A DNA stretch of 64,000 nucleotides from Raillietiella orientalis (taxonomy: Eukaryota), in the NCBI GenBank assembly GCA_036172245.1, contig JAYWIR010000001.1:4216001-4280000 (forward strand), written 5' to 3'. Position numbers and translations under genes: made by a program. Below the pieces are notes generated by a model. That model was given only the letters and a program-made list of their open reading frames with translations. It was not told the DNA's origin and searched no databases. The first letter of the stretch is position 1; every line of letters starts with the position of its first letter. Shown here one piece after another: positions 1-48,518 of this stretch.

Positions 1-104
1 ACTCAACAGGTGCCGAACATTTTTGGACGATGTAGGGCTGATGGCTCTACACATGTATATTTATTATTTTTATAATAAACGCCTCGGCTTGATCTAGTGT
101 TAAA
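1..104 (+). mobile_element. 3' tail of an L1/Tx1-type non-LTR retrotransposon (runs off window start)
   Basis: Closely similar to 48421-48518 (ggtgccgaacatttttggacgatgtag...gtgttaaa). Hairpin at 31-51; AATAAA inside the stem at 60-79. Confidence 0.75.
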
Positions 105-1374: not shown

Positions 1375-3437
1375 TTGCTCGACCTCCCGAAACATTGCTC
1401 TTTCGGGCTCCCTCGCCCCCCTTTCCGAGGAGACGACTGGGCTCACAGGATGGTACCCCTCAAGAGGTGGTCTCTGGTGCTCTTCGACTCCCACACCCTC
1501 CCATTAAAGTGGCCAGGAGTCGGCGCTGCTGCTGCTGCACTGGAGTCTCCCGTGCAACGCCCGCCATCATCACTGGACACGTGATGATGTGGATCCCAAC
1601 TCTGGCAAGTGCGGAGAGCATGAATCCCTCTCGCACCTGCTTGTGGACTGAGTCGCCCTCCGGCCCCTCTGGAGAACGCTTCTCTGCGACTCTAGGAACA
1701 TCGGGCGGCAACTCCAGGGACGCTCGGAAATCCCTCTTCGTTCGCTTTAAACCCGGTTCGCCGGGACGTTTATTTTGTCAATAAACTTATCCATATTGTG
1801 ACTGGACCAGTAGTCCAGCCACGTCCTAGAATGTTGCAGCTTGCCGGACTACCGGTGCGCAGACCGGCGCGGTCGACCTCGGCAGCAGAGGGGAATTGGA
1901 ACGAAACAAAAAGAAAACAAAAAAATAAACAAAACTGGGGAGGGAGCGGGAAGGGATCACTGTCTGCTGGGAGGGTCCGTCATCCTCTGAAGGATGCTGG
2001 CAAGCTGTTGTCGAATGGTGGATGTCAGATGGGGCCATCGCGTCGCAATCCTCAGGAAGCGGGCGGCATACACGGTGGCATCCCTGTCGCTGGTTCCTCC
2101 CGTCGCTTTGCTCCATGCCACGACGATCCCGCGTAGGCAGCACAGGGTTGCAAGCGACGCCGCTGGAGGCAGGGCGTCTCGGACGAAGAGGGGGCGCAAA
2201 GCGTCTCTGGGGTTGCCTCCGGGGATACCCAAGGCCGCGGCAAAGCGTTCCCACAAGGGACGGATGGCAACACAATCCACTAACAGGTGGGGGAGGTATT
2301 CCCTCTCCCCACACCTGACACAATTGGGGTTGACACCCTCCCGCGTCCAGTGGTGTCGGCGGGCGTTGCAGGGCAGGCCCCAATGCAACACCAGCAGTGC
2401 CGACTGTTGCCACTTCATGGGAGGGTGCGCGAGTCCATGAGCTCCGGGGGCCACTCGAGATGTTCCTCCGGAACATCCAGTAGCTCGCCCCAGAGCAACA
2501 GTCCTTTTGGGATGGTCCTCGGGGTCGCAGCGTTGGTCAGCTGGCCCGTTCTCCAATCCCCGATTTTCTTTTCCCTGTCGGCGATCTTGAATGTGACCTC
2601 CCATTGTGCCGCGACGTCGCTGCCCAGATGTTCCCGTAGGGTAGGCAGTACCGTAGCAAGGGAGGTTCTTTGTGCCCACGCTCTCCTTCGGGGATCCTCG
2701 ACGATTTCTCGGAGCGTGCGGTGGGCGTGCGGCCCGAACAGAGCTATTCGCTCGTATTGCGGGCTCTGCTCCTGAGTCATCGCCCACGTGCGAACGGTTT
2801 CCTGCAGCCAGGCCGTATTGTTCGCGGGGCGTACGAAGATCGATCCAGTGTTGGTCTTCACGAGTTTGGCCTCCCTCCGAAGCTGGATTCCGCAGTGGCA
2901 GATCGGCCTTCGAAGTGCAAAGTAGGACGAGAGTCCCGCGTTGCCGGTGGCCCTCTTCGTTCGCGACCCCCTTTGGCCCGCAGCATCGTGAGCAGCTCTC
3001 TGCTATCTACGCGGGATTGTAGCTTTCTGGAGTCACGCAAGAGGAGGGCACAGCGACAGTGGTGCCACATTCACTTCGTTGTCCGATTCACGAGGGTGGC
3101 AACGAGATGGCCTCACCTGAAAACTGTATTGCAGCAAGAGCTTGTCGGTATCCTTCAAAGGATGCTGAGGACGATTCCCAGCAAAACGTGATCTCTTCCC
3201 ACCCACCCACCAACTTATTTATTTATTTTTATTTTTGTTCCCTTTCCTTTTTGTTTGCCCCCCTCCCCTCTGCTACTATAGCGGACCTCACCGGTCTACC
3301 AAGCGGTAACCCAGAAGACTCTCGGTAAGACGAACGTGGTTGGACCGCTGGTCCAACCACAGAGACTGTGGTGGTGATGATGGTGGTGGTGGTGGTTTTT
3401 AATATGAAATAAACGCCCCGGCGCATCCGGGCGACAA
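1375..3437 (+). mobile_element. 5'-truncated L1/Tx1 element (zf-RVT region plus 3' tail), interrupted by the insertion at 1746-2950
   Basis: HWSLPCNARH...KCGEHESLSHLLVD lies before the insertion; LFVRDPLWPAAS...WPHLKTVLQQELVGILQRMLRTIPSKT* follows it. Tail hairpins at 3336-3360 and 3414-3433. Confidence 0.8.
1746..2950 (-). mobile_element. 5'-truncated L1/Tx1 insertion with 14-bp TSD
   Basis: TSD CCCTCTTCGTTCGC at 1732-1745 and 2951-2964. zf-RVT-like LHWGLPCNARRH...CVRCGEREYLPHLLVDC in ORF 1957-2787. Ends in ccgggtttaaa. Confidence 0.9.
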
Positions 3438-3541
3438 TCAAGAAGTGGCTCCCAACACAGGGAAGGAAGCAAAGATCCGAAACTTTGAGGCTCTGCACCT
3501 CGAAGACCTCCGTCATCCCGGAGCCAATCAGGGTCCACGGA

Positions 3542-4219
3542 GCCCAAAACCCGAACGGCCAAAATCTCGAAGAAAAATAATACATAGGTTTACTTATCTG
3601 AATATATGTACAGATTATATGCATTATAAAAATTATAAAAATAAATACATATCTTCATTATACATACTAAAGTATATTTGCACTTATAACAACCATATGT
3701 GAAATGAATATATGAAGACGTTCATCGAGCAATCCAAATTTCGTAAATCGAAGTCGTCGCTTCCCGAGGAGGCTGCGTCTGTCGAGTGCTGGAAAAGGAA
3801 ATGAGAAATTTCCTTTTTCTTTTTTTGATTTGCTCGCTTTTAATTTTTCTCTCACTATTTTTAATCATCGCAATTACTTACTTTTTTTGAAAATTCGGCA
3901 TTTGTATATTCATTTCGTATAGATATATATTATATGTATAAATATATATTAAAATATGATACATATATGCAGATTTATAATCTTTGTTACCTACATTAAT
4001 TAAATACGTGCATATTGTAAATTATATTATTAAACATGTATGTAAAAATAAATTCCATATTAATCTATATATAGATTCATGAACACATAAAAAATATATA
4101 CATTTTTATAATAGTTATAATATTTATTCATCTATACATTAATGTATATAGGAATTTATATATTAATACATATAATAAACATATGTATTTATTTTTAATG
4201 ATCTTTCTGGATTTTGAGC
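3542..4219. mobile_element. AT-rich non-autonomous TIR (MITE/foldback-like) element, copy 1
   Basis: Imperfect TIRs (caaaa[t]cccgaacg... / ...ctttctggattttgagc) and AT-rich arms. The central spacer is homologous, in opposite orientation, to that of 23461-24515. Confidence 0.65.
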
Positions 4220-5599: not shown

Positions 5600-7650
5600 C
5601 AGTAGAAGGGTGGGTGGGAATGTCCCATGAGGGAAGCACGTGACTCTGTCCCACGGAGCACAAGAAACTTCCCTCACACAGCGCGCTCCGAGTCAAACAT
5701 CACTGGTAAAATTATGAAAATCATGTCCACGGGGGATCCAAACATAGATAGGGAGGCAGGATGGAGAGTCCGCCACCTCACCTTTCGACCTCTCTCTCGT
5801 CCACCCTCCTGTGCTTTTTCACAGCCTTTTTCACGGCGGACGACGATCACCCAGGCTGTATCCCTGTTATTATGGAAATGCTGCATCTTTGGGTCGACCA
5901 TTCTTGATGAACAGGACTGTTGGAAGTGATGATGCAGGACACGGCATATTGGTCGACCCTGTCTGTCATGCCCCTTGCCGCAGCGCTTTCGGCCCCAAGG
6001 GCAGGCGACGATAGTTGCCAGCCGGCCAGGTGGGAGTTTTCCTGAATCAGCGTAGGAGAGAGGAAACTCCTTAGCGACCGGAAGACGCGCGAGCTAGTGG
6101 ATGCTGCCACTCCGCGGACTCTGGCAACAAAGCTCCTTCGGTGGAGTCAACTTTGAAGTGTCACTCCCGAGGGACTTGTGGTGTCACTCTCCAATGTTTG
6201 CACACATCTGTGTTCCCGCTGTCCTGGAAACAGGCCGTGCTGCTCTTTCTGTGCTGGGAACTCCAGTGCAACGAGCTCCCCCCACCGTGTTTTCACAGGG
6301 GCTGCATCCCCGAACTGTGCCACGTGCAGGTGGGTAGGGTCACCCCCGCACATGCTTTTGGACTGTGGAGCTTTCCTCCAAGGATTGTGGCGGAGACTGG
6401 CATCAGCGCTTCTGCACCAGGAGGACACCGCCCGCGACCTGCTGCAATGGTTCTTCGCTCCGGGAGGACTCTCGACGGGCTCCGGGATCGCGACGGTGGG
6501 TTGCGTCCGTACCATCGTTACGGCCCGCCGTGTGTCCGAGACGACCACGCAGCAAAGGGAGGCCGCCTGCATGAGGACGGCTGCAAGGTGACCTCACCTG
6601 CAAGAGGAGGTCAACGAGGAGATTGCCGGCATCCAGCACCGGTTTTGAAAGTTGGGAACGGCGGACATTGGTGACTCTTGTTTTTTCTTTATCTCCCTTT
6701 ATTTTTTCTGTCTGATTCCCCCGTCCTTTCGCTCCGTAACTTTCCCCGTTCTTGTACGTTGATCTCGGTGCATACAGAGTGAACCCAAAGACACATTGCT
6801 CCATCCCTCCCGTACTTCCTTATTTTTGTTGTGTTGTTTCCTTTCTCCAGTTCCACACTTTCAGATATCCCGACTTGCGTGTCGGCGAACCCTCCTCCTC
6901 AACTTCCTTTATCTTCGGTTAGGAACCAGCGTGTTCCCAACTGGAGACACACTCTCAGGAATTTCGTTTCATTTTCATTAAACAAATGCCCCGGTGTGAC
7001 CGGGTGAAAAACTTCTTGATCGATGTACCAAGCCTGATGCCTGGGAAATTTCGACTTCCGGCGTTTTTGTCTGTGGCCCAAGACCTCTGAAGTCCTGCTG
7101 CCAGTCCTTTTATTGTGGCAGGCAGCCCTTTGGATGAGAAGTCGAGACCCAACTCTCAGTGCCTGCTCTCTCCTTTCTCTTCTCTCTTTGAGTGCTGTTG
7201 AATGGCGGCGACGTCCAGGATGAGTGCTTTTCCCTCTCCCTGGAGCGCCATGACTCTCCTTTGGATTTGCTCTCAGGACGGTCTGGTCGGTGGTCATGAA
7301 CTCCCAGAGTCGCAGAATAGGTTCCTGCTTCGAGTCAACAACAGCTCTTCTTGCCTCTCTGCAATCCCACGCTGGCTGCAAATGCATACCTGCTCAGGAC
7401 GTGTCCCAAGGATTCCTCCCACTTTCCACGCCTGCGCAGCCGGATCTGCGACGCTTCTGATACAGCATACGCCGGAGAAGGCAGGAGACTGGGTAGCGCG
7501 CGAGGGTGGACCTTGAGCTAGGAAAAATAAGGTGTTCTCCGCTGAATAGGAAAGGAAAGAAGCCCAACGTTGCCCAACTAAGGTCACGGGCGTCCCTCTA
7601 TCCGGATGTTTTGCAATGAGGGACGCCTGTGCTGACCTGGTTGAATTCAT
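5600..7650 (-). mobile_element. Degenerate L1/Tx1 ORF2 (end of RT and downstream region), host of the insertion at 5909-7012
   Basis: NFPGIRLG (like the YLGI motif) lies right of the insertion; QEWST and GRKVRWRTLH lie left of it. Boundaries are approximate. Confidence 0.55.
5909..7012 (+). mobile_element. 5'-truncated L1/Tx1 insertion with probable 8-bp TSD
   Basis: TTCTTGAT at 5901-5908 and 7013-7020. The peptide ELVDAATPRTLATKLLRW aligns with the element at 1746-2950; zf CATCRWVGSPPHMLLDC. Ends ccgggtgaaaaac. Confidence 0.8.
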
Positions 7651-17953: not shown

Positions 17954-20340
17954 TTTTATCACCCAGGCACGCCGGAGCGTTTATTTAATACGAAGAAAAC
18001 AACTGGGAACACGCTGGTTCCTAACCGAAGATAAAGGAAGTTGAGGAGGAGGGTTCGCCGACACGCAAGTCGGGATATCTGAAAGTGTGGAACTGGAGAA
18101 AGGAAACAACACAACAAAAATAAGGAAGTACGGGAGGGATGGAGCAATGTGTCTTTGGGTTCACTCTGTATGCACCGAGATCAACGTACAAGAACGGGGA
18201 AAGTTACGGAGCGAAAGGACGGGGGAATCAGACAGAAAAAATAAAGGGAGATAAAGAAAAAACAAGAGTCACCAATGTCCGCCGTTCCCAACTTTCAAAA
18301 CCGGTGCTGGATGCCGGCAATCTCCTCGTTGACCTCCTCTTGCAGGTGAGGTCACCTTGCAGCCGTCCTCATGCAGGCGGCCTCCCTTTGCTGCGTGGTC
18401 GTCTCGGACACACGGCGGGCCGTAACGATGGTACGGACGCAACCCACCGTCGCGATCCCGGAGCCCGTCGAGAGTCCTCCCGGAGCGAAGAACCATTGCA
18501 GCAGGTCGCGGGCGGTGTCCTCCTGGTGCAGAAGCGCTGATGCCAGTCTCCGCCACAATCCTTGGAGGAAAGCTCCACAGTCCAAAAGCATGTGCGGGGG
18601 TGACCCTACCCACCTGCACGTGGCACAGTTCGGGGATGCAGCCCCTGTGAAAACACGGTGGGGGGAGCTCGTTGCACTGGAGTTCCCAGCACAGAAAGAG
18701 CAGCACGGCCTGTTTCCAGGACAGCGGGAACACAGATGTGTGCAAACATTGGAGAGTGACACCACAAGTCCCTCGGGAGTGACACTTCAAAGTTGACTCC
18801 ACCGAAGGAGCTTTGTTGCCAGAGTCCGCGGAGTGGCAGCATCCACTAGCTCGCGCGTCTTCCGGTCGCTAAGGAGTTTCCTCTCTCCTACGCTGATTCA
18901 GGAAAACTCAAGCAAACAAAGAAAAACAACAGAAACACTCACTGAGCCACACTGTAGATTGCAATCCGGACCGCGCTCCTCACATCTGTCACTGCACGAT
19001 CAGCCTAACACAAGGGAACTGAGGATGCAGCTCCCTTCTCCAGTCTCACTTGCATCTATGGTGAGATGTATGCGAGTGCCCAAGAAGGGACTCTTCCTCG
19101 TTTCCGGATCCCTGTCTCTTTCCTTGGCAGACCTTTGAGGATTTCTACGTCTGACGTGTCTGCGTTCTGGCGAAGCTTTCACCCCATCACGATGCCTGCG
19201 GCAAAGAGCTCCAGGGCAGCATCTGCAGAGGGATCGTTCAGGGGAATGACCCCCTCTCCTTCGAGAAGTCCCCTCGGGATCTCCGTTCTGATTTTTTTCT
19301 GCGAGCATGCCCCCCCCCCCCCAGTCGTTGAGCACTGCTCGACAGGGGAACAGGGAGAGTTGGGTTTGAGAAGTGGCGCTAAGGGATGAACCAGACACTT
19401 GATTACGGCGCCCGATGCGACGACACTCATCAGATCCCATAAAAGGTGTTGGCTGCTATGGACAGCAGGACGGTGTGTCCATGGAAGTTGGAATCCGCTA
19501 AGGAGTGTGTAAGTACTCACCTGCCGGTGCAAGCGGTCCTGAAGGTGATGGGACTCAAGCGTCGAGCCTATACTCAACCTCGAGCATCCTTGGACCGGGT
19601 GACGCTCTCCAGAATGTTCAAATCACCCACGACGGCGACGATGTCCTCGGATGCAGCCCTGCTGCGCAGAAGAGTCGGTCCATACGCGTTCACCAGGAAC
19701 AAGGCATTCGAACCCCGACGATTCGGCCGGACCATGGAGAAAAACACTTCGAGGATAATGCACACGATCTCGTTCTTCACGAGGATCACCGCCTCCTCTC
19801 TTTATCTTGTTTCTGCCGGTGCTGACGAGCAACTGGGCTTCCAGTCTTCGCTCGAGTTCAAGGCCGATCCTGTGGCCCATGGAGTGAGGTTTCCCGCCGG
19901 CACACGGCGAGCACGCTCGATTGTGAGCGTGATGTCTTCGTTTCTCCTGGTTCCACAACCCTTTGATGTTCGAGGAAGCGATCTTGAGGCACCCGGCGGA
20001 AGAAGGAGCACCAATTTTTTTTTTTTTAAGGGGTTCTGCTCTGCTCCTTCCGCTTTTGCCTTGGGAGACTGCGGTGGCCAGCTTTTCCGATGTCTCTCGT
20101 TCCCCTGTCGCTTTCGGACTCCAGATAGTCCATGCTGTCCTCGGTGGGGGGATTTCCTCTTCCCAGACGAGAGAGGAAGCCCTTGTGGTTTTCTCTGAGA
20201 GAAGCAATAAATCAAGGCTTGTTGTTGTCCCCATCTGATGAATTTGGCTTTCTCCAGATTCCAGCTGAGATCGCCGCTCCTCGCTGTTCACCGCCTTCAT
20301 GAGGATGTCTTGGACATTGCAAATTAGGAGATCCTTATTT
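17954..20340 (-). mobile_element. Chimeric L1/Tx1 element: APE endonuclease remnant joined directly to a zf-RVT region and 3' tail
   Basis: KIASSNIKGL, FLVNAYGP and VAVVGDLN lie in 19500-20000. 18004-18909 is an inverted copy of 6034-6939. Tail: aataaacgctccggcgtgcctgggtgataaaa. Confidence 0.75.
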
Positions 20341-20381
20341 CTGCTCCTGGTTGTTGTTGTTTGGGCGCACTTTCTCGATCA

Positions 20382-21800
20382 TTTTCACCCGGTCACCCTG
20401 AGGCATTCATTGTAAAAAAAAAAAAAAAATAGAAATTTCAACAATAAGTTATTCAAGAAAGCACGAGGTGGCAGCGCAGTGCCGCCACTTCCTCATGTTC
20501 CCTGCTCCAAGCAGTCGCCGGAAGAAGTTCGCGTAGGGCAATTAAGAGGAAGGGAAAGAGACAAAAAAAATCAATAAATACGAAATGGAAAAGCACTAAG
20601 ATGTCTGGGGAATGAGGGAAGATCACAGACTGCTCCCTGGTGGCCTATGCATACTCTCAAGCATGCCGGCAAGTTCCTCCCGGTTGTGCCTCAGATGCAA
20701 TCATCTAGGCGATCCTTAGGAACGAGAAGACGGATGAGGCAGCTTCTCTGTTGTTCCGGTCTCTGTCGATGAAAATTCTGGATGCTGTCATTCCTCGGAA
20801 GCAGCCCAAAACTGCCCAAGTAGCGGTTGTCGCGGCAGACGACATCCTGTCACACAAAGTGAAGACTGACGTCTGAATGAGGTCCTCGGGTGGTCTTCCA
20901 GGAAGTTCAGAGACATGGTCAAACGTCCTCGCACGCATAAGAGGACAGAGGACTCCAAAAACAGGTGCGGCAAGGTTTTCCTTACGCCGCACGTGTCCCA
21001 CTCTGGGTCCGCACTTTCCCTGGTCCAGTGCTGGAGGCACGTGTTGCATGGGATCGCCCGATGCAGTAGTCGCAACGCCGAGTTCTGCCACTCCAGGGGA
21101 AGCACGGAGCTGTGGAAGAACACTGCGGGGACCGACTCAACGTCATCTGGATGACCTACCCAACACTTTCTCCAGCGGGATTCCAGGGAGATCCGCCCAG
21201 ATGAGAATTCCTTTAGGGTGGGCGGCGGGGATGGAAGAGTCAGACAGCTGATACGCCGTCCAGCATCCTAATCTTTCCTTTCTTTCAGCAATATCGCAGT
21301 TGACTTCCCATCCTGCAGGCTGATCGCTGTCCTGGCTATCCTGCAGGGACGAGAGCGTCGCAGCAAGAAGGGTTTGCTGGTCCCACAGGGCCTTCCTCGG
21401 TGCATCATCTCCTTCAGCGAGTAGCGAGCGCAACTCGAGTGCCGCAGACGTTGCGTTTGCGTTTCCTTCAGTGTCTTCACCCACGTCTGAACTTCTTCCT
21501 GTTTCTAGGCACTGCAGTTTGTCAGCGAGCGGGAGATATTCAAGCATGATCCTGAGTTAAGGCAACGATCTGCCAAAACTGACGGGGGCATCGCGGGCAC
21601 AGCTGTGAACGAGGAACAAGGTGAGTCCTTCCGAGCCGGCTGCTTGCTTGACCAGGATCCGGGCCGGCACGCACCAACGGATGCTCCAAAACATCGCTCC
21701 CAAGGCTGCTCTTCTAAACTGAAGCTGATGCTGCATCCTTTCCAGCGTCAAGACGCCGAGTCCAACGTTCCGACGAAGATACTCCGCTACCTGTAGCTTA
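20382..21800 (-). mobile_element. 5'-truncated L1/Tx1 element (zf-RVT plus 3' tail)
   Basis: LRLLHRAIPCNTCLQHWTRESADPEWDTCGVRKTLPHLFLE in ORF 20788-21123. Tail hairpin at 20465-20491; end gaccgggtgaaaa. Confidence 0.75.
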
Positions 21801-22700: not shown

Positions 22701-22719
22701 GCCGCGGCGCGGCTGCCGC

Positions 22720-25100
22720 CACCCAGCGCCGGGACGTTTATTTCTGATAATAAACATACGAGATCCTCAAAACTAGTCACGTAAGAGGGCAATCAGATTG
22801 TGTTGCTTCAGGTCGGGGATCCCTAATGGGACGGGAGAGGGGGGAAGGAGTCATCGGGTTCCGCGAGTCTGTCCCTGTCAACCTGCAGATGATTGTGCCC
22901 ACCTCTCCTCTGTCGGCTTTTCTAGATATTTCCACCTTTGGGCTGCTCGTAGCATTCCCTTGATTACCTGGAGAACGTCTTTCTGCTGATTGTGGTGCTC
23001 GAGAAACGATCTCATAACCACTGAGCCACGGAGGAAGCACACCATGATGACGGATGATGCTTTGGAAAGACCGTCTCGCCGGAAGAATCGGCTTAAGAGA
23101 TCTCTGGAAGTCAGGTTTGGTAAGGATAGGCTTTGTGGCATTTGGTCCCATCCGTTCTGCAGATCCTGACATTCGAGCAAAAGATGTTCAAAGTTTTCTT
23201 TAATCCCACACCTTCCGCATCTGGTGTCCACTCTTCCTTGTGGGTCAACTAATATTGGACTTTCATGGAAATTCCTGCATCGTTTTGAAACATGGTCAGG
23301 GCATCCACCGCAATTTCGAGAGATCAAACAGTTTCTCCCGAAGCCTTATCCTTTGATCGCTTCTCGGCCTTTCGGCGGAGATCAAAGTGTGGTCCTTGGA
23401 TCCTGGGTTCAGTTGGAGGAGGACGGCCCGCGTAGGGCACGGGTGGCCTTGCCGTTTGGTTCAAAATCCCGAACGATCTTAAAAATAAATGCATTTGCTT
23501 ATTATATACATTAATATAAAATTTTCTATATAGATTAATGTATAGATAATATATATTATAGAGATTATAAAAATCAGTATATTTGCTTATTATGGATGCT
23601 AATATGCATATTTATATTTAGATCAATATGCATTTTTAAAAAAAAACATGTTCATTAGTATTTATTAGCATACATATTATTGATAGTAATATTATTTTAA
23701 CACATACATATGTTGATGTTTATCAACACGCATATTATTAATACAATTTTTAATATGTTTATTACATATATTTATATGTAGATTAATATATAGGTAAATA
23801 TGAATTATAAAGATTAAAAAATTAATATATGTCTCCACTACATATATTATTATATATATTGATATATAAATTAGCGTACCGACTGATGCACAAATTATTT
23901 TAGCATGCATATTTATTGGAATGCTTTGTGATATATAATGAGATATATATAGTAAAGATTATAAAAAATAAATAAAAATGTTTACTATGTACATTACTGT
24001 ATGCATATACCTATAATTCATTTAATATACATACACTGCATGAATTTATAAATATGGAATTTTAAAAAGTAAAAAATAGTGGGGAAAAATAAAAACCAAT
24101 AAACTTTAAAAAAAAATTCGTGTTTCTTTTTCCTCTCATTCTTAATAACACTCAATAAACGACACTTCCTCAGTAAATGGTGAATTCCATTTTCAGGATT
24201 TTCATCCTGCGATAAATATATATGTTTGCAGGCTGATATTTATATACTTATTTCATTTATATTCATTATATGTAGATATTACATACATACATATACTCAC
24301 TTTTTTATAATCTACAACACATATTATTATATCAATAAACATACTTCCTAAAATAGATTTTAGATTAATCTATACATAAATATGTATGTTGACATAAATA
24401 GTATTTTTTATTTCTATAATGTACATTAATTGATACGCTAATCCACATATCACATTATACATTAATATTTGTAATAAGCATATGTATTCATTTTTAAGAT
24501 CGTTCGGGATTTTGATCCTCACCGCGTCGAACGCTGGAGCAGTCATCTCCTCGGAAATGGCCACTGGCACATCTCTATAGCATGGTGCAACCATAAGCAG
24601 TCCTGTCCCTCGTGGGATCAGTTCGTCCCTAGGATCCCACAGTCGGTATTTGACTAAATGGAGCAGGAAGATCATCCTTACCCAATGAGGAAAACCATTT
24701 GGATTATCCCGTCCCTCTTCTTTGGTAATTTGCAGGAGTCTGCGCGAACGCAGTCTCCCAGCATATAAATTATGCTTGAGAGCAACCCAAGTTTGGAGTC
24801 ATCGCAGAGGTCAACCCTGCCTGGGCACAATGGCCAGGCCTCGCTCTGGAGGAATTGTCTTCGTGAACGTAGTTGTCCCCAGTCTGACCAGCCGTAGTGC
24901 GAACTTATCGAGCAACTTCCACGCAAATTCACATTCGCACATTTCTGCAGACACTTTGTCGAGTGTCCCTGCACGCAAAAGTTCAAGGCACTGAGTGTCA
25001 CTTTCTTCACACATTTCGGGATTCTTTCTCTGTTGGGGGCAGGAGTCACTAGGGAGTCTGGTGAGCAGTCCACTCACTTGGGCAACATCCTCCATCTTCT
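22720..25100 (-). mobile_element. L1/Tx1 ORF2 3' region plus tail; possibly interrupted by the TIR element at 23461-24515
   Basis: DTRCGRCGIKENFEHLLLEC in ORF 22878-23327. Tail gtttattatcagaaataaacgtcccggcgctgggtg. Continuity across the TIR element is inferred. Confidence 0.65.
23461..24515. mobile_element. AT-rich non-autonomous TIR (MITE/foldback-like) element, copy 2
   Basis: Perfect 26-bp TIR TCAAAATCCCGAACGATCTTAAAAAT at 23461-23486 and 24490-24515, extending imperfectly inward. Degenerate internal subrepeats; no ORF. Confidence 0.85.
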
Positions 25101-33200: not shown

Positions 33201-36200
33201 ATTCCTTATGCACACATTATGAATTTCAGCATGAACACATTGCAGAGCTGAAAACTCTGCTAAAGGAATGCAAAAAGTATTATAGCAGAGGAGTTTTAAA
33301 TGAGCGCTGCTGGGAAAGGCGCTGTACAGGAATGCCGACAGCATGCATTCTTCATAATGTTGCTTTTAATATTTTCCATTTTCTCTCTGATTGGCATTTA
33401 CAAGTAGGTATTGATACTCTGTGTAGTCATTTTGGTTTTTCCACTTATGTGTAGTTAGAAAACTACAAAATAGCATAAAAGTTGAAAGAATTGCCATTGC
33501 TGAAAATTAGAACTTTTCACCTACATGTGCATTTTTTTGTAAAAAAGAAAAAATTCCATAAATTACTTGTTGCATGTTACTTTTCACAATATCAGTTGAA
33601 AGAATTATTTTGTTATTTCTTACATTTTGCTGATGTTATGATGATTTTTGTATTCAAAAGAGTACTTCATTCAGTTGGATCACACCACTATGTGTTGCAT
33701 TCAAGGATATAGCTTCAAGGTCACTTAATTTCTAAAATTGCCAAACATTTGTTCATCTAATTTTCAAAAATATTATGTGCGTATTTTGGATTCCCTTTCC
33801 AAAAATATATGGAAACGAACTTGAGATTTAGAGTGAGATAATTGAACTGGGTACTTTTGTGCATCCAATAGTTATACTGAAAAGTGGAATCTGGCTTGGA
33901 GGCTCAGGGTTTTGAAATGCTATAGTTTTAACCAAGTCAAAACATTGGACTGGTTGAACCGTTTTACTTTAGGAAATTCTGCATAGTTTTCAAAGGAACC
34001 AAATGCATTAGGCTTTTGTCCTGGATTCAAGGAATACGTATTCCAATAATTGGTTGTAATCAGTGGTTGTATCACAGTAACAGACTTGATTCGATGTTCT
34101 GTAAAGGAGAATACAGCATGCAAGGTTTTAGTAAAAGTATGTGTTCTAAATTTTAAATCATTTATTTGCTTTGCCATTTCCCAATTTCAGACAGCCTGAA
34201 ATTGTGAGTCGGCTTTGGCCTATCTTTTGCATCATGCATTTGAATTTACATGTTCTTTAAAAGAACAAATATTTATCATTATTTTATTAAAAGAATGTTT
34301 GTATTTTTTTTTTCAATAGAAACATTCGAGGTGTTTACCTAGAGAACTCAGCAGTATTTGCAGAATGAGGAATTCGCAGTCGGGGCATGATGGTATATGC
34401 ACAATAGCTTGAAAACCATTATTTAAATTACACTGGTGCATTTTACTAGAAATTATTAATCAGCAGATCGCGCCAGAATTCGTTTCGTTTTATGGGCAAT
34501 TGTCAAAGTGTCCATGGTATATCTTTTTAAAAATGTTTTTTGGATTGTTTCGTGGAATCAGACGTGTCGATTTATTTGTCCAAAAGATGGGCATAATTTT
34601 ACTTTTGCTTGTTAGCAAAGCAAGCTAGTTCACCACATGTAATGAGCGCTGCAAACAAAAACGACTGTTGTTTTATTTTAGAACTGCAGTTTTATTTTCG
34701 TTATTTTCCGAATTTTTTTTCCCACAATCAATTAACATTTCTTTAATCCATCATCCAGTGCGCCGAGTTCAATTTCCACATCTCACACTCGCAAAAAGTT
34801 TGCAACGTTCTCCTACTTGCAAACGTTTTTGTAAATTATCTTAGGTTTCATTCTGTATCCCGTGAATCACTACTGATTAATCGTTTACTGAAGATACCAT
34901 TCATAGCATTTATGCTCTTGTTGCATGATCAACTTTGTAGTTATGTATTTTTCCGATTTTATGAATACACCGAAGAACTTAAAAGGTTACATGTAACGCA
35001 TGGAAGAAAGAAACGAGAAGTTTCTTGAATTTGCATTTCTTTCTTTCTTTTGTGCAGAATGCTGACGTACCAGCCATCACTGCATCTTTTTTACCCATTC
35101 ATGGAGATAAAGAAAGTCACCTTCGTCTCTTTGAAATGCTACAAACAGAGAAGCTAGACAACAGTGTTGTAGAAGTGGTGGCCCTTCACATAAGTAAGTC
35201 ATTGTGTGTTTTTGTTTAACATGCTTCTGAATGATCTGTAGATGCCAAGGAAGAACTCTTTCATCGATATTTGCTGTCCGACCTGCTTCCTTTGATTGGT
35301 GCAATCACTTTAATTAGCATCTGTGTCTGGGAATTCACAAGATCACCTCTGGTTTTTTTTGTTGCAAGCATAGCAGCAATCAGCAGTTTGTCTGCTAGCT
35401 ATATTGTTTATAAGACTTTTATTCCCTTTTTTCCATTTATTAATATGTTTGCCGTGGTGCTTTTGGTAGGTATGTAAATGGTCAAATTGTACGTACAGTC
35501 TCCATTGATATTCTTGCATAGGCATTGCAGCTGATGGTGCTCTTCTCTTTAGTAAGATTTTTGATCATGGACAGTTGTCTCAATTATCTGTTGAGGAGTC
35601 GGTTTACCGCACTCTGCGCCATGCTGGTACAATTGCCCTTGCCAGCTGCACCACAACAGCTGTTGCCTTTTTTTCGAGCTCTATTAGCAATGTCACTGCG
35701 ATCTGCTGCTTTAGGTATTTTAGCAGTAAGATTCCTGTATTTTAATTAACTTTTTTCCAGTGTGTATTCGGGTTTGGTGATTCTGCTGTATGGAGTATTC
35801 CTTTTTGTGTGGTTACCTCCTGCCCTTGTACTCCAAAAACAGTTTCTCCCTTCATGTACCTTGCTTTGTAACTCTTGGCGTCGGCATCTTTGTTCTTTTG
35901 TTCAAGAAGTGATTCCCAGTATGATATTCACGTGCCATCCCATTTTAATGGCTATTTTAACAGCCATCAGCATAGTCTCAATGGTTTTTCTTGGCTGGCA
36001 CCATGGGTTTCCATTGCCTCAACAGCAAGAGTTGCAACTCTTTGAGAGCTCTAATTTGCTGGAGCGCTATGATCAGGTCTTCCGTGATCAATTTGCTTTC
36101 TGGAGAGAAAAAGAGCACATGGTGCTTCCCCTCTCATTTGTATGGGGAGTCAAACCAACTGACTTGGGTAGTTACTTGGATCCCAGTTTATCCACTACCT

Positions 36201-37279
36201 TAGTGTATGATGACCACTTTGATATGTCAGACGAACGTGCACAGTTGTGGTTATTGAATTTCTGCCAGCAGCTACAGGAACAGCCATTCTTTAGACCTTC
36301 GCCATCACCCATTCCCTACAATTGTTTCATTGTCGATTTTAAAGAATGGATGGAAGGCCGTTTGTGTGATTGGTTAGACACTTATCCCTGCTGCAACAAT
36401 GTATCATTTCCATATGCCACCCATGTCTTCCATATGTGCCTGCATGGTTTTTTGTCTTCCCTTTACAGTACGCCACGAAGATTTTTTAGGCCTTCAGAAG
36501 CTGGTCCCAGATTCGATGCTAGGACCAACCAAATACGCATGGTGGTAGTGAGCTATCTTAGTCAGTGGAATTTCACTTTTGCATATCCGCCAATGATGGA
36601 GGCGTATAGAACTGTTGAGCTTTGGTTTCAGAACGAACTCGAGACAGCTCCATCAACTATGAAAAATGGATGGTTTCTAACTGATTTTCACTTCTTGGAT
36701 CTACAGCGCAATCTCCTGTATAGTACGTTTGGCTCTGTTCTTGTGGCCTTGCTTCTATCAGGATTGGTCATGTCGCTACTCACAAGGAATCTCCTGATCA
36801 CGCTTTGTGCATTGTACACCATTTTGAGCACAGTTTCCGTCACAATGTCGTTACTAGTGCTATTAGGTTGGCAGTTGAGTGTTCTTGAATCCACAACACT
36901 GTCTGTTAGTATCGGCCTGGCCGTAGATTTCACATTACATTATGCCATAGCTTATGCATTCAGTGATGGGCCCTGCCACAGGAAGAAGACTTTGCACTGC
37001 CTCCAACTCTCCGTGGGTTCTATAAGCGTGGCAGCCCTGACGACGGGTGTTGTAGGGTTTTCTCTGTTGTTCTCGAACCTGAAAGCATATTTGCAGATGG
37101 GTACTTACCTTGTGATTTTGATGATAAGCAGCTGGGTCTACTCCACGTTCTTTTTCCCCTCGTTGTTGGCAGTTTTCTCAAGTCACCGTTGTGCCAATCT
37201 TAGAGTCTTTGAGCATCAGCTGTCTTGGGTTTGCAACAAGAAGTGTGAAAGTCGAATACATCATGAGGGTCAGAAATGA
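30205..37279 (+). CDS. disp: Dispatched homolog (Patched/RND family, sterol-sensing domain), 9 exons
   Basis: Exons 30205-30360, 31267-31458, 32789-32882, 32954-33174, 33230-33403, 35058-35193, 35242-35469, 35522-35714 and 35761-37279 join in frame with GT-AG sites. Motifs: LPEFDDPTK|GFETRGT, CCDSWSLGN, FFPFIN, FVWGVKP, AQLWLLNFCQQL, LGWQLSVLES, IGLAVDFTLHY. Confidence 0.92.
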
Positions 37280-42169: not shown

Positions 42170-43870
42170 TTTTCTCTAATCGTAACGCTCATCGGTAATC
42201 ATTTCGTGGGTGGCGCAATGAGCAAATGGGACGAGGTTCAGCACTGACAGTGGATGTGCTCGATTTTCACCCGGGATCGCCGGGGTGTTTATTGACACCA
42301 ATAAACATCACATTATGATATGATAGGGCCATTGGATCTATCAAGTTCTCTCATCTGCACAGCTTGCCGAGAGGTCCGGTGCGCAGACAGGAGAGGATGG
42401 CCTCGACAGCAGAGGGGAGGGAAAAAAGAAAAACAAAAAAAAAATGAAAAATACGTAAATATAAATAGACTCTGGGGGGCACGGGAAGGGATCACTGTCT
42501 GCTGAAGACCGTCTTCTGCATCCTTTCCAAGATGCTGGCAACCTCTTCTCTCCTATTCTCCAGGTGGGGCCACCTCCTTGTCCTCCGTAAAAAAACGTAG
42601 GGTGAAGTGGATGGCGTCCCTGTAGGCTCCTCCTTCACTGGGGTCGCTCCACGCCGCCACAATCCCGCATAGGCAGCAAAGCGCTGCTAGGGATGAGTTC
42701 GGCGGCAATGCGTCGGGCACGAAGAGGGCTCTGAGTGCGTCCCTGGAATTGCCACATGGAGCCCAAAAGATCGTCGCTGCAAAGCGTCCCCACAACGGTC
42801 GCAGGGCAACGCAGTCCACAAGCACGTGCGGGAAGGTTTCCCGTTCCCTGCATCTGCTGCAATTCGGGTCCACGCAACCTCCGGATCCACAGATGTCGGC
42901 GGGCGTTGCATGGGAGGCCCCAGTGCAACAGCAGAAGCGCCGACTCCCACCACTCGAGAGGTAGGGTGCGGTTGTTCAGGAGCGCTGGGGACCACTCGAC
43001 ATCCTCACGGGGAACGCTCAGCAGCTCGCCCCAACGGCGACGCCGTCGTCGCGGAATTCCGGCTGCGGCAACACCCATGCGACCAGGGTTCCCACCTCCT
43101 TCCACTGCTTCCAGAAATCCTGCACTCGTCCTCAGAGGTCCTGCGAAGTCATGGCCGCACGTCGCGGTCTTCGCCAACTTCACACAGATGGCTGCGTTTT
43201 CAGGAGTCCCTTGTTTTCCCTTTTCCTGAAGTCTACAAACCTGCGGGAAAATGCTTCACAGAAAGAAAAAAAAAAATTTTTTTTCTATTTCTTCCTTCCC
43301 TCCTCCCCTCCTCCATTCTACATTCCATGGAAAAACGTAGAATTGCAAAAATCAGAACCATCCGGTTTCCGTTGAGCACCCCTCGAACTGGCTAGTGCAC
43401 CCCTGGGGTGCGCGCTCAAAGACCACCTGACAACCACAGTTGGTGAAGGAACAAGTGCGAAACTCGCTCCTAGCAAAGGGGCGCCCCGACCTTCAAAACT
43501 CGAGATCGCCCGAGTTCAAACACCGGATCTTCCGTTGCCGAGGTTGGAGTGCTCTCAATTACACCGCTGTCGTCACGCAGGATGTGCTTGTAATTTGAGA
43601 CGTGCGCAGCTCGAGAGCGCCGAGGGACGCGCGCGACAGACGAGCCGTGGTGGAACAGCAGCGCCGCGCCCCGCGACGGCCCGCGATCGACGAGGACCAT
43701 GGTCCATTCCGTGAACGGGGTTGCAGTTTCCGGAGCTGGAGAACGCCTGGCGGGCACGTATCGCACACGTCGCACGAGCCGCAGACGGGGGACGCCGCAG
43801 AGCTGCCGGCCGCGTTTCGTTCCGCGGCGGGCAGCCTCGCTGCAGCACGTCGGGGAACGCTCGCGAGATG
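42170..43870 (-). pseudogene. Frameshifted ZZ plus C2H2 zinc-finger (KCMF1-like) fragment, split by a retroelement
   Basis: Across frameshifts it reads FPDVL..GC...PVCGSCDVCDTC...SSGNCNPVHGMDH.MVLV. After removing 42263-43579 it continues EHIH...[R]PICSL...MITD, the same motif order as the KCMF1 N-terminus. Confidence 0.45.
42263..43579 (-). mobile_element. L1/Tx1 insertion (possibly composite) with 11-bp TSD, one mismatch
   Basis: GGATGTGCTCG at 42252-42262 and GGATGTGCTTG at 43580-43590. LHWGLPCNARRH...CSRCRERETFPHVLVDC; tail closely resembles 1746-1960. Confidence 0.75.
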
Positions 43871-44289: not shown

Positions 44290-47200
44290 TAGTGCCCTGC
44301 CTAGGCAACAACCACCGTTTCTGCGACAATTTTTGTGTGCTCTGACGGGCAAGTAACGGTCAAATGCAAGATAGAGGTGCCTAAACCACCCGGGTAGACG
44401 CGGGCCGGCCCCAAACCAAGGAGGACGGACCATCGACGCAGCAAGCGACGACAGCAACTGCGAGAGCATGCGAGGCTCCCCTCAGCAGGGATGCCGTACG
44501 GGAGCGTGGTCGCATCCGCCCCATCCGGAATGCCCGTGTCGACCACGGAGTGACCACGCGTTACCGTTGTCAGAGGAATTTCGGCCCCGAGGTGGCCGTT
44601 GTCACCTTCCCCGAGGGCCAACAACGCGGAACATGCGCGACATTCACCTCGCGAGATCGACTTTGAATACACCGAAGCCATCGTACCATTCGTCGGAGGA
44701 TTCTCCGTTCGCACGGACTACCCGGAAACAATCGAGGATCCCGTCGGCAACGGGCTGGTCATCAGAGGAAGGACCGCCTGAGGAGTTTCGGAGCACGCGG
44801 AGACGGCAGTGTACCTGGCTAGGCCTGCATCCGAAGACGGCGGCGACGCCATGTGGGAGCACTTCCAGAAGTACGGCGAAATCGTCCGCGTGAAAGAAAC
44901 TGGCACGAAGACACCGTCGGGGGAGAGGTCATCGTGAAGAACAGGATGCCGAGAGGCGCGAGAATTCCGAGTCTCGTCCGCATCCACGACCACTGGTGGC
45001 CTGCCGGGAGCAGACAGACTTCAGCCGCACTTGCATGGATACAGGACGGCGACCTGCCCAGAACTCAGGTGCAGGCATTGTGGGGCAAACCCGGGCACGC
45101 GCGGAGACCGAGTGCGAGGTCCTCAAGAGATGCTACTTCTGCAAAGATGACCGCCACGAGAGGAAGGACTGCTACAAACACAAGGAGTGGCTAGCTTGCC
45201 AGGAAGAAAGAGAGAGAGGCAGGGAAGGAAGAACTCTGCCGACGCACCAAAGGAGGTGCGAATGGTCCCCCTCCCCCTTTCGGAGCCGGAGGCCTCCGCA
45301 AAGGGCGATAAGTCGCCGAAGAAGAGCAAGAATGTCACCTGAGAGGAGCCTGCATCTAAGGCAGCGCCAGCCACCGCAATCCCGGAGGGAGATCGAGCGG
45401 GAAGCTGCAATCGAGGAACTGAAGGCTAAAATCGACGACCTGCGCTCCGCAATTAGAGCGACCGCTAATGAGGAGCAAAAGGGCAAGGCGTTCCAGCAGA
45501 CAAAGGAACTGCTGTAGCAATTGAGAGAGGAAGCGATCCCGCCGCAGGGGGCGATGCACCTGGAAGATCAGGTGTAGTCGGCCTCATCCCCTTCGTCCTT
45601 CGGGACAATGACCGAAAAAAGGGGAAGGAAAGGCGCAGAGCCGAGCCGTCTGCAATTGCGGAAGGGGAAGAGAGCGCGGCGAGCTGCTATACGTCCGAAG
45701 AGGACATTCCTGAGGAGGAAGTAGCAGCATTGCTGCAACCAAGGAGCCAGAGCAGGAGACAGGCGCGCCCAGAAAATCAGGGCGCAACTGTCCAAAAAGA
45801 AGAGAAAAACGAATTAAAGGAACCCAGCCGTCCATAAATGGCGCAATCCCTAACGCCGATACGGGAGATCGTGTTCTCATCCTGGAACATCAAGGGACGC
45901 ACGAACCCTACGAGGAGGAAGCACGTGACGTGGCTCTTGCGTTAGGAAGCCATCTCCTGCCTGCAGGAAGCCCACTTCCTGAATCCCGAAGTGCAAGAGG
46001 AACTGGAACGCGACATCCACGTAAACCAGGGCACAACCTGTCGCAAGGACGTGGATCCTGGTGAAGAAGACCCTTTCACCAACCATCCTGGAGATGTTTC
46101 GCGAGTGGGCAGGCTGTCTTTTGGGCCTGAGGATGGGGCACTCCGGAAGCGTACACCTGTTCGTGATGAACGTGTGCGGAAAGAGGAAAGCCTTCGCATG
46201 CGCGCCCTCATGGACCAAATGAAGAGCAAGGCCACCCCCAAAAACGTCGCCGTGATCGCGGGCGACTTCAACGTCCGGCTGGACGGAAGTTGTCACGATG
46301 AGACGGGCGCGCAGAACGCCTACCGGCACATGGTGGAGTGAACTCGTCTTCCTGTGCACGGGGGAGAACATGAGGCGCATCGACCACGTCGTGTACTCAG
46401 AAGCTCTCGACAATGGAATCCAGGGGATCCGGGCACTGGACACCAGGATCTGGGACCACCCCCTGCTGAAATGGAGAATGGGGTCGAGGAATCCCAGGAA
46501 GGAGAAATCGGTACCCCGGGTAGCTCTCATCTACATGTCCGAGTAATACGAACGTTTTCCCGTACCAGCGCGTCGTGGAGACCATCCTGGCCACGACCAA
46601 CATCTTGCGCGTGGAAGACTGGGGCACTCTCAAGCACACAATCCATTTCTTCTCGAACTTTCAGTGATAGGGATCTCTGCGAGGAATTTTGCAGGGAGAT
46701 CCACCAACTCCACCCCTCTAATTCTGAGTACTAAGAAGAATACCAGAGGCACTTCCTCGACAGGAGCGTCAAGAAGGACATCGGACGGCTGGAAAAGAAA
46801 AACCTGGCAACGGACATCTTCCACGTCCGTTACCGGGACAAGGACTGCCGAACCTTGGAGACCAGTGCTGGATGCCTTCCAGCACCACTACTCTAAGATG
46901 TTCAAAGAAAGATATATGGACCCCGGAGGCCAGGAGCGGATTCTACGCAACGTGAAGAAGCGCCGGGCCTCCCACGAGCAACGAAACTTGGATGAGGACT
47001 TCACAGCCGAAGAGATCGAGACGGCGTTCGACGGACTCTGTAAGGACGTGACGGCGGGCCCCAGCAGCGTGCTCGTCACGCACTACCAGAGGCACCTGTG
47101 TCTGTTCCGTCAGCTGCTGGACTGTACCTGCCGAGAAGGATGACTGCCTGCCTCCTTCCACCGAAGCAGGATGAGGCTGCTCCCCAAGAGCGACGGAGAC

Positions 47201-48518
47201 CTCTGCAACGTCACCCAGTGGAGGTCCATTTCCGTCCTGAACTCGGATGGCCATCCGGCTGAGGAAGATGCTGAATTCGTTGGTTTCCCCCACGCAGATG
47301 TGTGCCGTCCCAGTCAGACGCATGTGGGATAACTTGAAGTGCGCCCAGGGCCTCCTAGGGTACAATGGTTTCTTAGGGAACGACCTGGTGCTCAGCTTCA
47401 CCGACATCGAGAAGACCTTCGACTCGGTGGACTACGCCATGCTGCTGAAGATCCTGGAGAAGCTGGGCTTCCAGGGGAGATTCGTGCAGTACGTGGCCCA
47501 CATTCTGGAGGAGGTCAACTTCACGATCAGCATCAACGGGTCCACTTCTCACAACATCCAGATGGGAAGAGGAGTCCGCCAGGGAGATGCCCTGAGCCCC
47601 ATGCTCTTCATCATGTCGGACGAGCGGGATCAGGAGGCGTCCCTGGACATCGTGCAGGCCATGGAATGCGGCCTCAGACTTAAGGTGAATCCCAGCAAGT
47701 CCCATCTGCTCGCCATGGGAATACCGGACGTCACCGCCCTCCACGTCCACGGCTTCCGGATTGTGGACAGCGTCCGGAATCCTAAGTACCTCGGGGTACA
47801 CATCAAAGACGAAACACCAGTCCTGGAGTGGCAGCAATGGTCGACCATCCTAGCCAAGCTGCGAGAAGAAATCAGCCAGTACGTCGGAGACATCTTCTCG
47901 CAGAAGGACAAGGCCAACCTCTAGAACGAGGTGATGGCACCGAAGTCCCTCTTTGCTGCGCCTTTTCTCAAGATTCCCACCTGCTCATGGAGTGCGTTGC
48001 CCTCCGCTTCATGTAGGAACGTTTCGCCGCGTTCCTGGGGATCTCCAACGGCAACCACAGAGACGTTTTGAAGCGCCTATTCTCGCGCGATGACTTCACG
48101 CCTGCCGCATCCCTAGCAGCACTTTGCTGCCCACGGGGTGGGATCGTGCATGGAGCAGTGCTTGAGGAGGCCAGAACGACAGGGGCGCCATCTATTGTGC
48201 TTTCCTCTTTTTGAGGACAGCGTCAAGATGGCCCCACTAGGGAGTTGTGAAACAATAACTTCCCTGTATCCTTACAAGGATGCAGAGGACGCCCTCCGGC
48301 GGACAGTAATCCCTTCCCGTGCCCCCCAGAGTTTTTTTAATAATTATTTTTATTTTTGTTTGCCCCTTCCCCCCTCCGCTGCCGAGGAGAACCTCGACGG
48401 CCTGTGTGCCGGTTACTCGGTAGGTGCCGAACATTTTTGGACGATGTAGAGCCGATGGAACTACACCTGAATGTTTATTATTTTGATGATTAACACTCCG
48501 CCGTTACCTGGTGTTAAA
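44290..48518 (+). mobile_element. Near-full-length but dead L1/Tx1 retrotransposon (ORF1, APE endonuclease, RT, zf-RVT remnant, 3' tail)
   Basis: ORF1: MWEHFQKYGEI and CYFCKDDRHERKDC. APE: SSWNIKG, CLQEAH, VIAGDFN, RIDHVVYS, DHPLL. RT: WRSISVLNSD, TDIEKTFDSVD, GVRQGDALSPMLF, KYLGV. The YADD block is deleted, with stops and frameshifts. 5' boundary approximate. Confidence 0.9.

Follow-up and report, generated by a model that had tools for sequence, protein, structure and literature searches.

Introduction

The closest described relatives of the tails analyzed here are found in plants and algae. In the monocot LINE1-1_ZM group of L1-clade long interspersed nuclear elements (LINEs), the 45-nucleotide (nt) 3′ end shows a divergence of 0.144, compared with 0.570 for the body of the element (Ohshima, 2012; PMC3472496). 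These monocot tails form a hairpin that has undergone compensatory mutations while loop nucleotides stayed unchanged, and they are shared with partner short interspersed nuclear elements (SINEs), and the Chlamydomonas element L1-1_CR also shares its tail with a SINE (PMC3472496). On this basis, stringent recognition was proposed to be ancestral in the L1 clade (PMC3472496). In zebrafish, PMC4176376 describes recognition of a stem-loop by the open reading frame 2 (ORF2) protein of the stringent LINEs ZfL2-1 and ZfL2-2. Here, we analyzed a 64-kb stretch of Raillietiella orientalis DNA (contig JAYWIR010000001.1, positions 4,216,001 to 4,280,000; hereafter the window), in which nine LINE copies end in related tails.

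An initial annotation of the window had opposed L2-type LINEs, read through a 3′ stem-loop, to L1 elements, which rely on poly(A). This contrast is no rule, since stringent L1-clade tails have been published for monocots and Chlamydomonas (PMC3472496). We report that the nine tails share a strongly conserved terminus, and that this terminus probably serves both RNA 3′-end formation and recognition by reverse transcriptase (RT).

Results

Nine LINE copies share a conserved 3′ terminus

The nine tail sites of the initial annotation, labeled T1 to T9, are the 3′ ends of dead, mostly 5′-truncated copies of one endonuclease-type LINE lineage. When the nine sites were read, every hairpin sequence quoted in that annotation was present at its place. 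The recurrence of the tail is real and far above chance, as judged by pattern searches and a covariance model. The pattern AAACRYYCCGGN{3,6}CYGGGT gave 3 matches compared with 0.00 expected, and none of 100 shuffles reached 3; the pattern CCGGN{3,6}CCGGGTGAAAA gave 2 matches, again with 0.00 expected. The covariance model (R1), built from the last 49 nt of the tails and run with filters off over both strands of the whole window (128 kb), returned all nine tails at 35.2–51 bits (E 7e-9 to 2.3e-5), and its next-best match (15.1 bits, E 0.64) was the antisense of T7 itself. As R1 found the nine tails and nothing more, the annotated list is complete for the window.

The MAFFT alignment of the last ~50 nt gave the consensus AAATAAACGCCCCGGCGTnnCCGGGTGAnAA. 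Only three parts are universal: an AAUAAA-like hexamer, a G+C hairpin of the form CCCGG-N4-5-CCGGG (hairpin C), and an end of 6–8 nt with at most five A. Hairpins A and B, a further upstream hairpin and the pyrimidine tract are specific to particular lineages. The annotation had described one ordered tail, present in whole or in part; its recurrence and order hold, and all three hairpins are clean in just three of the nine tails (T2, T8 and T1), with T9 as a decayed fourth. The features are as follows (R1 score in bits):

1-104, plus strand: T1, truncated by the edge of the window; hairpin A 31-51, hairpin B 60-79, decayed hairpin C 83-97, end UGUUAAA 98-104; 50 bits.
1746-2950, minus strand: T2, a 5′-truncated LINE copy with its 3′ end at 1746, inside an older plus-strand LINE.
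1957-1959, minus strand: ORF2 stop codon TGA of T2, followed by a pyrimidine-rich tract from 1956 down to ~1880.
1851-1868, minus strand: extra upstream hairpin of T2, GCCGGU-CUGCGC-ACCGGU, common to T2, T8, T3 and T9.
1798-1822, minus strand: hairpin A of T2, 11 base pairs (bp) with the triloop ACU.
1768-1786, minus strand: hairpin B of T2, GUUUAUU-GACAA-AAUAAAC, with AAUAAA at 1769-1774; 7 of 1000 shuffles were as good.
1752-1765, minus strand: hairpin C of T2, CCCGG-CGAA-CCGGG.
1746-1751, minus strand: terminal UUUAAA of T2, the element end, 23 nt past AAUAAA.
2951-3437, plus strand: T3, the 3′ part of the older LINE split by T2 (5′ part at 1467-1745); stop codon 3189-3191, hairpin A 3336-3360, hairpin C 3417-3431, end CGACAA 3432-3437; 50.6 bits.
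6966-7011, plus strand: T4, with an AUUAAA-type hexamer, a perfect hairpin C at 6990-7004 and the end UGAAAAA; 50.1 bits.
17954-18000, minus strand: T5, with AAUAAA, hairpin C at 17962-17976 (5 pairs, 2 of them wobbles) and the end UGAUAAAA; 50.5 bits.
20382-20627, minus strand: T6, belonging to a lineage further removed; hairpin A-like stem 20468-20488 (8 bp, loop ACUGC), hairpin C 20388-20402, end UGAAAA 20382-20387; 47.2 bits.
22719-22850, minus strand: T7, with a short 3′ untranslated region (UTR) and without hairpin A; hairpin B 22735-22756 (8 bp), hairpin C remnant 22719-22733; 35.2 bits.
42264-42494, minus strand: T8; stop codon 42492-42494, hairpin A 42321-42343 (6+2 bp with an internal loop), hairpin B 42286-42307 (9 bp), hairpin C 42270-42284, end UGAAAA 42264-42269; 51 bits.
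45823-48518, plus strand: T9 element, which alone among the copies retains most of ORF2; ORF2 start at ~45823, weak endonuclease match 45946-46341, RT 47241-47924, stop codon 48307-48309; 44.9 bits for its tail.
48310-48518, plus strand: tail of T9; hairpin A 48445-48465, decayed hairpin C 48497-48511.

In-frame translation upstream of the tails revealed one ORF2 C-terminal domain common to all nine copies; it carries the motif CX2CX7HX4C and ends in RWPHL...ILQRM in most of them. Compared with T2, the protein identity of this C-terminus is 55% for T8, 34% for T6 and 30% for T7. At the DNA level, T1, T2, T3, T8 and T9 can be aligned to one another by BLASTN (66–73% identity in ORF2 and the upstream UTR), with T1 and T9 as the closest pair (82% nucleotide identity), and the bodies of T4/T5, T6 and T7 gave no BLASTN alignment to the bodies of the other tails. 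With five copies this similar as DNA and the C-terminal domain shared by all nine, to speak of divergent families was an overstatement.

The last 28 columns of the tail alignment are 46–82% identical (mean 65%) over all 36 tail pairs, even when ungapped, whereas the ORF2 C-termini of the same lineages are just 30–55% identical as protein and their DNA is beyond BLASTN alignment. The terminus is thus conserved far above the element body across diverged lineages, as in a stringent-type tail. Because this conservation persists where the bodies have diverged past DNA alignment, it points to selection on active master elements rather than to shared neutral ancestry. In T3, a (GGT/GAT)n-like expansion of ~35 nt without counterpart in the other tails (3362-3395, plus strand) lies between hairpin A and the hexamer, indicating that the spacing between hairpin A and the terminal module is not constrained.

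T4 and T5 are also connected by a 906-bp inverted repeat with 100% identity (6034-6939, plus strand, and 18004-18909, minus strand). It spans the end of ORF2 and the greater part of the 3′ UTR in the two LINE copies, both of which are degraded and carry the same frameshifts. The repeat suggests recent duplication at the DNA level, gene conversion or an artefact of assembly rather than two insertions. Its identity breaks off sharply ~70 nt (T4) and ~50 nt (T5) before the element ends; as it stops short of the ends, T4 and T5 carry different terminal modules.

Searches beyond the window gave no related tails. Metagenome contigs scanned with an alignment of the C-terminal protein domain (A1) yielded 53 pattern matches, none of which was a relative by tblastn. 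The DNA pattern AATAAACRYCCCGGN{4,5}CCGGG was found at 76 metagenome, 48 prokaryote-genome and 2 viral loci; these 126 loci showed no blastn or tblastx similarity to the LINE copies and were dropped as chance or terminator-like matches.

Hairpin A covaries and hairpin C is a conserved palindrome

The role of base pairing was evaluated separately for the three hairpins. Hairpin A was found in six of the nine tails (T2, T3, T8, T1, T9 and T6). MAFFT failed to align it with the flanks included, and the pairing test was therefore performed on five equal-length segments centered on the loop, with T6 excluded since its 5-nt loop is out of register. Of the 55 cells in this alignment, 85.5% were paired, compared with 25.5–38.2% when the 3′ partner was slid by 1–3 columns. 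The covariation score was 0.491 versus 0.309, a value reached by 4 of 500 shuffles, and both sides had changed in 5 of the 11 pairs; the count of double changes alone was unexceptional (reached by 67 of 500 shuffles). This bears out the proposal that the stems of hairpin A differ and still pair while the loop is kept. The apex follows the constant form C-Y-R-M-U-G-G (CUACUGG, CCGCUGG, CCAAUGG, CUGAUGG and CCGAUGG), and T6 has a different 8-bp stem with the loop ACUGC at the matching place. Four cells of the sense-strand hairpin are G-U pairs. Moreover, RNAalifold recovered the hairpin A helix unaided from four whole tails and added the upstream hairpin, with 6 pairs, 2 of which had changed on both sides. 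These results support the view that hairpin A behaves like a selected RNA helix.

Hairpin B, which the annotation had described as often holding AATAAA in its 3′ arm, is lineage-limited. A contiguous stem of 7–9 bp that includes AAUAAA is present in four of the nine tails (T2, T8, T1 and T7), where 3–25 of 1000 shuffles were as good (3 of 1000 for T8), and it is weak or missing in the other five; in T9, the stem is interrupted.

Hairpin C is a perfect 5-bp stem in T2, T3, T8 and T4. In the other tails it is imperfect, with 5 paired positions including 2 wobbles in T5, 4 of 5 in T1 and T6 and 3 of 5 in T9, and in T7 it is broken by a deletion. Overall, 80% of its 45 cells are paired, a proportion that 282 of 500 shuffles matched, and its covariation score was matched by 121 of 500. 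The arms are conserved and the loop varies in both sequence and length (CGAA, CGAUC, CGCAU, UGUGA, CGUGC and GGUGA). Thus, compensatory changes in a 3′ stem-loop were found in hairpin A and not in the terminal hairpin C, and the selected RNA structure claimed for the whole tail is supported for hairpin A, whereas in hairpin C structure is indistinguishable from sequence conservation. CpG decay was considered as a cause of the changes in hairpin C and rejected, as the observed/expected CpG ratio is 0.78–0.93 in the LINE copies.

The folding stability of the terminal 81–119 nt was compared with that of shuffled sequences. T2 (z-score −5.2 over 85 nt) and T3 (−3.6) folded clearly better than shuffles, and T8 (−2.4), T6 (−2.25) and T1 (−1.8) moderately better; the values for the remaining tails were −0.5 (T9), −0.4 (T4), −0.2 (T5) and +0.3 (T7).

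The tails end without poly(A), 23–29 nt past the hexamer

The exact end of one element could be defined by its target-site duplication. T2 is flanked by a perfect 14-bp duplication, CCCTCTTCGTTCGC, at 1732-1745 and 2951-2964, and BLASTN aligned the plus-strand segments 1467-1744 and 2951-3308 to adjoining parts of the same ORF2, with T2 between them. The split ORF2 and the duplicated 14 bases show that T2 is a nested insertion occupying 1746-2950 on the minus strand. In the RNA sense, it ends in ...CCGGGTTTAAA (CCCGG-CGAA-CCGGG-UUUAAA), that is, with three A and without a poly(A) tail, and the target-site duplication starts directly after ...CCGGGUUUAAA.

The other readable ends are UGAAAA (T8 and T6), UGAAAAA (T4), UGAUAAAA (T5), UGUUAAA (T1 and T9) and CGACAA (T3). 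None of the eight tails with a readable end has more than five A, and the poly(A) end of mammalian-type (relaxed) L1 elements is thus not seen here. AAUAAA or AUUAAA is present in seven of the nine tails, and in the six tails where both the hexamer and the end could be read they lie 23–29 nt apart. The canonical distance from AAUAAA to the cleavage site is 10–30 nt, and the observed distances fall within this range.

No common target sequence was detected in the downstream 200-nt flanks of the nine tails, which were no more alike than shuffles in 35 of 36 pairs; the sole exception was a 21-nt match located 120–170 nt from the ends, in a small sample. Insertion into a specific repeated target, as in Tx1 elements, was therefore not observed in these nine flanks. 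The likeness between the T3 and T6 flanks (TCAAGAAGTGG and TCGAGAAAGTG) was considered as a target preference and rejected, as its local alignment score equaled that of shuffles. TCGAG or TCAAG occurs 0–3 nt past the A-rich end in three of the nine tails, namely T8 (42258-42263, minus strand), T6 (20376-20381, minus strand) and T3 (3438-3442, plus strand), and GATCGA lies 8 nt past the end of T4. The TCGAG/TCAAG motifs could reflect a weak target preference, a few extra templated bases or chance.

The ORF2 layout resembles the L1/Tx1 type

An RT domain is kept solely in the T9 element (RVT_1, E 1e-11), where the endonuclease match is weak (Exo_endo_phos, E 0.039, below the cut-off); tblastn with RT relatives detected no second RT in the window. 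A CX2CX4HX4C (CCHC) knuckle at ~45131, upstream of the T9 ORF2 start, is ORF1-like, and knuckles of this kind upstream of ORF2 resemble the ORF1 of many LINEs. The C-terminal domain gave a zf-RVT match in one of the four C-terminal ORFs scanned (E 0.0016; 19.5 bits, below the 27.5 cut-off). An exhaustive search of 1.84 billion representatives with the RT fragment returned 15873 matches at E ≤ 0.001 and none at E ≤ 1e-30, the best relative being 35% identical over the matched stretches; Exo_endo_phos, RVT_1 and zf-RVT occurred together in five of eight long relatives scanned, which were chosen from the best 150 of the 15873. Another search with the RT fragment gave 5 weak matches (28–34% identity), and the ESM Atlas matches to the RT were generic RT clusters only. 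The corresponding search with A1 found no relatives at E ≤ 0.001.

As read from these domains, the ORF2 layout appears to be of the L1/Tx1 type, and the RT motif GVRQGDxLSP is more in keeping with the L1/Tx1/R2/RTE side than with the CR1/L2/Jockey side. Against the PDB, the RT matched R2Bm at 48.8 bits over 74 residues and human L1 ORF2p at 42.5 bits over 123 residues (E 5.5e-10). These scores do not separate L1 from R2, and the endonuclease and linker fragments had no informative PDB matches. Membership in the L1/Tx1 group is accordingly plausible on domain architecture, though not established.

Surroundings of the LINE copies

The composition of the window is very uneven (34–70% G+C). A single long exon of 509 codons at 35750-37279 (plus strand) encodes a Dispatched-like protein with a sterol-sensing domain (best PDB match Protein dispatched homolog 1, E 1.5e-90). 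Its observed/expected CpG ratio is 0.48, compared with the higher values of 0.78–0.93 in the LINE copies, and this contrast agrees with methylation of the invertebrate type more than with that of the vertebrate type.

At 19399-19577 on the plus strand, Rfam detected a lone piece of eukaryotic large subunit (LSU) rRNA, which covers positions 1175-1351 of the 3401 in the LSU_rRNA_eukarya model (124.6 bits). It is separated from the 3′ end of T6 by ~0.8 kb, a stretch that contains a 251-codon open frame without Pfam match. Another short repeat family, unrelated to the LINE tails and 71–79% identical, occurs at 4021-4217, 23458-23636, 23954-24055 and 24326-24518. From 52000 to 64000, the G+C content rises to 68–70% and open frames are found on both strands. 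The minus-strand frames include a CHAT domain at 55692-57083 (E 3.3e-29) and many TPR_12 repeats at 58837-60345 (E 1.5e-72). In the Atlas, the look-alikes of the frames in this region include ‘tetratricopeptide repeat protein 28-like’ clusters, which are most frequent in Cnidaria, and CHAT proteins of fungi.

Discussion

A probable combined signal for 3′-end formation and reverse transcription

The reading we favor, and hold to be probable, is that the tail is a combined 3′-end-formation and RT-recognition module of the stringent type. In these tails, the stop codon is followed by a pyrimidine-rich tract and a terminal module that would act in cis. The module begins, in some sublineages, with hairpin A, whose stem drifts by compensatory change around the fixed apex C-Y-R-M-U-G-G. 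A U-rich stretch and AAUAAA come next, pairing as hairpin B in some sublineages, and are followed by the almost invariant 5-bp G+C hairpin C and 6–8 nt ending in 3–5 A. In the favored model, the element's own AAUAAA would set RNA cleavage 23–29 nt downstream, just past hairpin C. The ORF2 protein would then recognize the terminal hairpin or hairpins of its own RNA, and target-primed reverse transcription would start at the very 3′ end, not inside a long poly(A) tail. An end at the expected cleavage distance, together with the absence of copied poly(A), suggests that reverse transcription would start at a defined point beside hairpin C. Hairpin C is the likely core site, a role favored because it is universal and lies 6–8 nt from the end, and hairpin A may be an accessory or specificity determinant in some sublineages. 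Protein binding to the hairpins, cleavage at this site and the ranking of the hairpins are what we infer from the tails themselves.

Several observations weigh against this reading. The nine copies represent ~four independent lineages; hairpin A is missing from three of the nine tails (T4, T5 and T7), and its test rests on five sequences, which include two pairs of close relatives. A contiguous hairpin B stem is not found in T3, T9, T4, T5 and T6, where 128–947 of 1000 shuffles were as good. Hairpin C, the candidate core site, lacks covariation, its score being equaled by 121 of 500 shuffles; as a palindrome that is conserved, it could owe its pairing to the conservation of two sequence blocks. 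In addition, the terminal regions of T9, T4, T5 and T7 fold no better than shuffles, and the sense strand is more stable than the antisense strand in just six of the nine tails. A scan for a second target-site duplication found none and gave chance-level 9-mers only (T8 and T6), and R1 detected no tail-only or SINE-like copy sharing the module in the 64-kb window.

The strongest alternative, which we regard as unlikely, is that the tail serves 3′-end processing only, as a compact polyadenylation unit that is independent of any flanking downstream element and is not read by the RT. Its parts would be a U-rich upstream element, an AAUAAA shown or masked in hairpin B, and a hairpin C that fixes the cleavage distance. 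The hexamer in seven of the nine tails, the end 23–29 nt beyond it and the placement of the hexamer within the hairpin B stem in four of the nine are all in keeping with such a unit. However, processing alone predicts poly(A)-tailed copies, whereas T2 has three A directly against its target-site duplication and no tail exceeds five A. Moreover, hairpin A, located 30–60 nt upstream of the hexamer, covaries, a feature for which a cleavage unit has no need.

It is less probable still that the hairpins bind a host or element factor for a step other than RT initiation, such as export, stability, localisation, ORF1 packaging or second-strand synthesis. Conservation and covariation show selection and not the step at which it acts, and the antisense strand folds as well or better in three of the nine tails. 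Nevertheless, the conserved hairpin lies 6–8 nt from the 3′ terminus, which is the place of the RT-recognition stem-loop in stringent LINEs as described in PMC3747384 and PMC3472496, and a version of this explanation acting on the cDNA is opposed by the four G-U cells of hairpin A, which become A-C mismatches in cDNA. Least probable of all, and by our estimate very unlikely, is the absence of any function, with the tail made up of inherited ancestral sequence, a poly(A) signal and chance palindromes in a patchwork of A/T-rich and G/C-rich sequence: the lack of covariation in hairpin C, the four of nine tails that fold like shuffles and the small sample fit this account, but the terminus is conserved where the bodies and the rest of the UTR cannot be aligned, hairpin A has kept its pairing through two-sided changes, and the pattern searches expected 0.00 matches.

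Within the favored combination of 3′-end formation and RT recognition, a bolder proposal is that an animal L1/Tx1-like lineage has fused its poly(A) signal with its RT-recognition structure, with AAUAAA placed in a hairpin, an invariant G+C hairpin filling the gap to the cleavage site, and the RT engaging the cleavage point and copying without poly(A). We offer this tentatively, as a possibility with the odds against it. If true, it would represent a stringent mode undescribed for animal L1-group elements and would hint at an origin of stringent recognition in the ancestor of the entire L1 group, in line with Ohshima's proposal for plants.

Comparison with known systems

No Rfam family, LINE 3′ elements included, matches the tails at the gathering score, the sole match in the window being the LSU rRNA fragment, and relaxed searches with T1–T3 and T8 gave unrelated families only (8.6–20.9 bits, E 0.26 or worse). 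We found no description of this tail in the open-access literature. As far as Rfam and the open-access literature go, the suggestion that it is undescribed may stand for the tail itself; it falls for the kind of device, as stringent L1-clade tails with compensatory stems are already known (PMC3472496). The device is thus of a familiar kind, and its occurrence in the present lineage has apparently gone undescribed. It establishes no new principle, since in most LINE clades the RNA is normally recognized through a 3′ stem-loop. If our reading is true, an animal example would join the small number of L1-group LINEs in which a defined 3′ structure is read in place of poly(A), and would bear on whether the relaxed poly(A) recognition of mammalian L1 is derived. 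The tail also offers a compact, testable RNA for ORF2–RNA binding, with a covarying stem, a constant C-Y-R-M-U-G-G top and a 5-bp GC hairpin located 6 nt before the terminus. In genome annotation, the 49-nt model marks the 3′ ends of this lineage sharply and may help in finding partner SINEs.

The monocot and Chlamydomonas L1-clade elements (PMC3472496) are similar in their L1-like ORF2 and in having the terminal tens of nucleotides conserved above the body, and in both systems a 3′ hairpin varies in its stem by compensatory change while loop nucleotides stay fixed. They differ in detail. The plant hairpin has the loop UCU, the 3′ flank CGAG and mostly poly(A) ends (PMC3472496), whereas the loop here is R-M-U and there is no poly(A) tail; here, unlike in those elements, up to three or four hairpins are present and the poly(A) signal lies inside the module. 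Their hosts are plants and algae, whereas the present genome looks animal-like, given the Dispatched exon and the undepleted CpG of the LINEs. Partner SINEs are known for the published elements, whereas none was found here in the 64-kb window.

UnaL2 of eel and the zebrafish ZfL2-1 and ZfL2-2, all of the L2 clade, resemble the present tails in carrying a conserved stem-loop a few nucleotides before the 3′ terminus, as described in PMC4176376 and PMC3747384. According to these reports, the L2-clade stem-loop is read by the element's own ORF2 protein and reverse transcription starts at a defined end, which is the behavior we would predict here. These elements belong to another clade, and the reports describe ends in short tandem repeats, such as (TGTAA)n, for template slippage (PMC4176376, PMC3747384), whereas the present tails have a single A-rich end and an AAUAAA signal.

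SART1 of silkworm, an R1-clade element, needs a 3′ UTR structure and has a precise RT start, as cited in PMC3472496, and the present tails would be alike in both respects. Also as cited there, SART1 combines its recognition structure with an end of the poly(A) type, which would be a further likeness. Unlike the present copies, SART1 is telomere-specific and keeps a poly(A) tail, at least in that citation; here, no target specificity was detected and no tail is seen. Finally, mammalian L1 appears to share with the present lineage the endonuclease–RT–Cys-rich layout of ORF2, and the 14-bp target-site duplication of T2 is of L1-like length. However, mammalian L1 is recognized through poly(A) and leaves long A tails, whereas the copies described here end in at most five A behind a conserved terminal hairpin.

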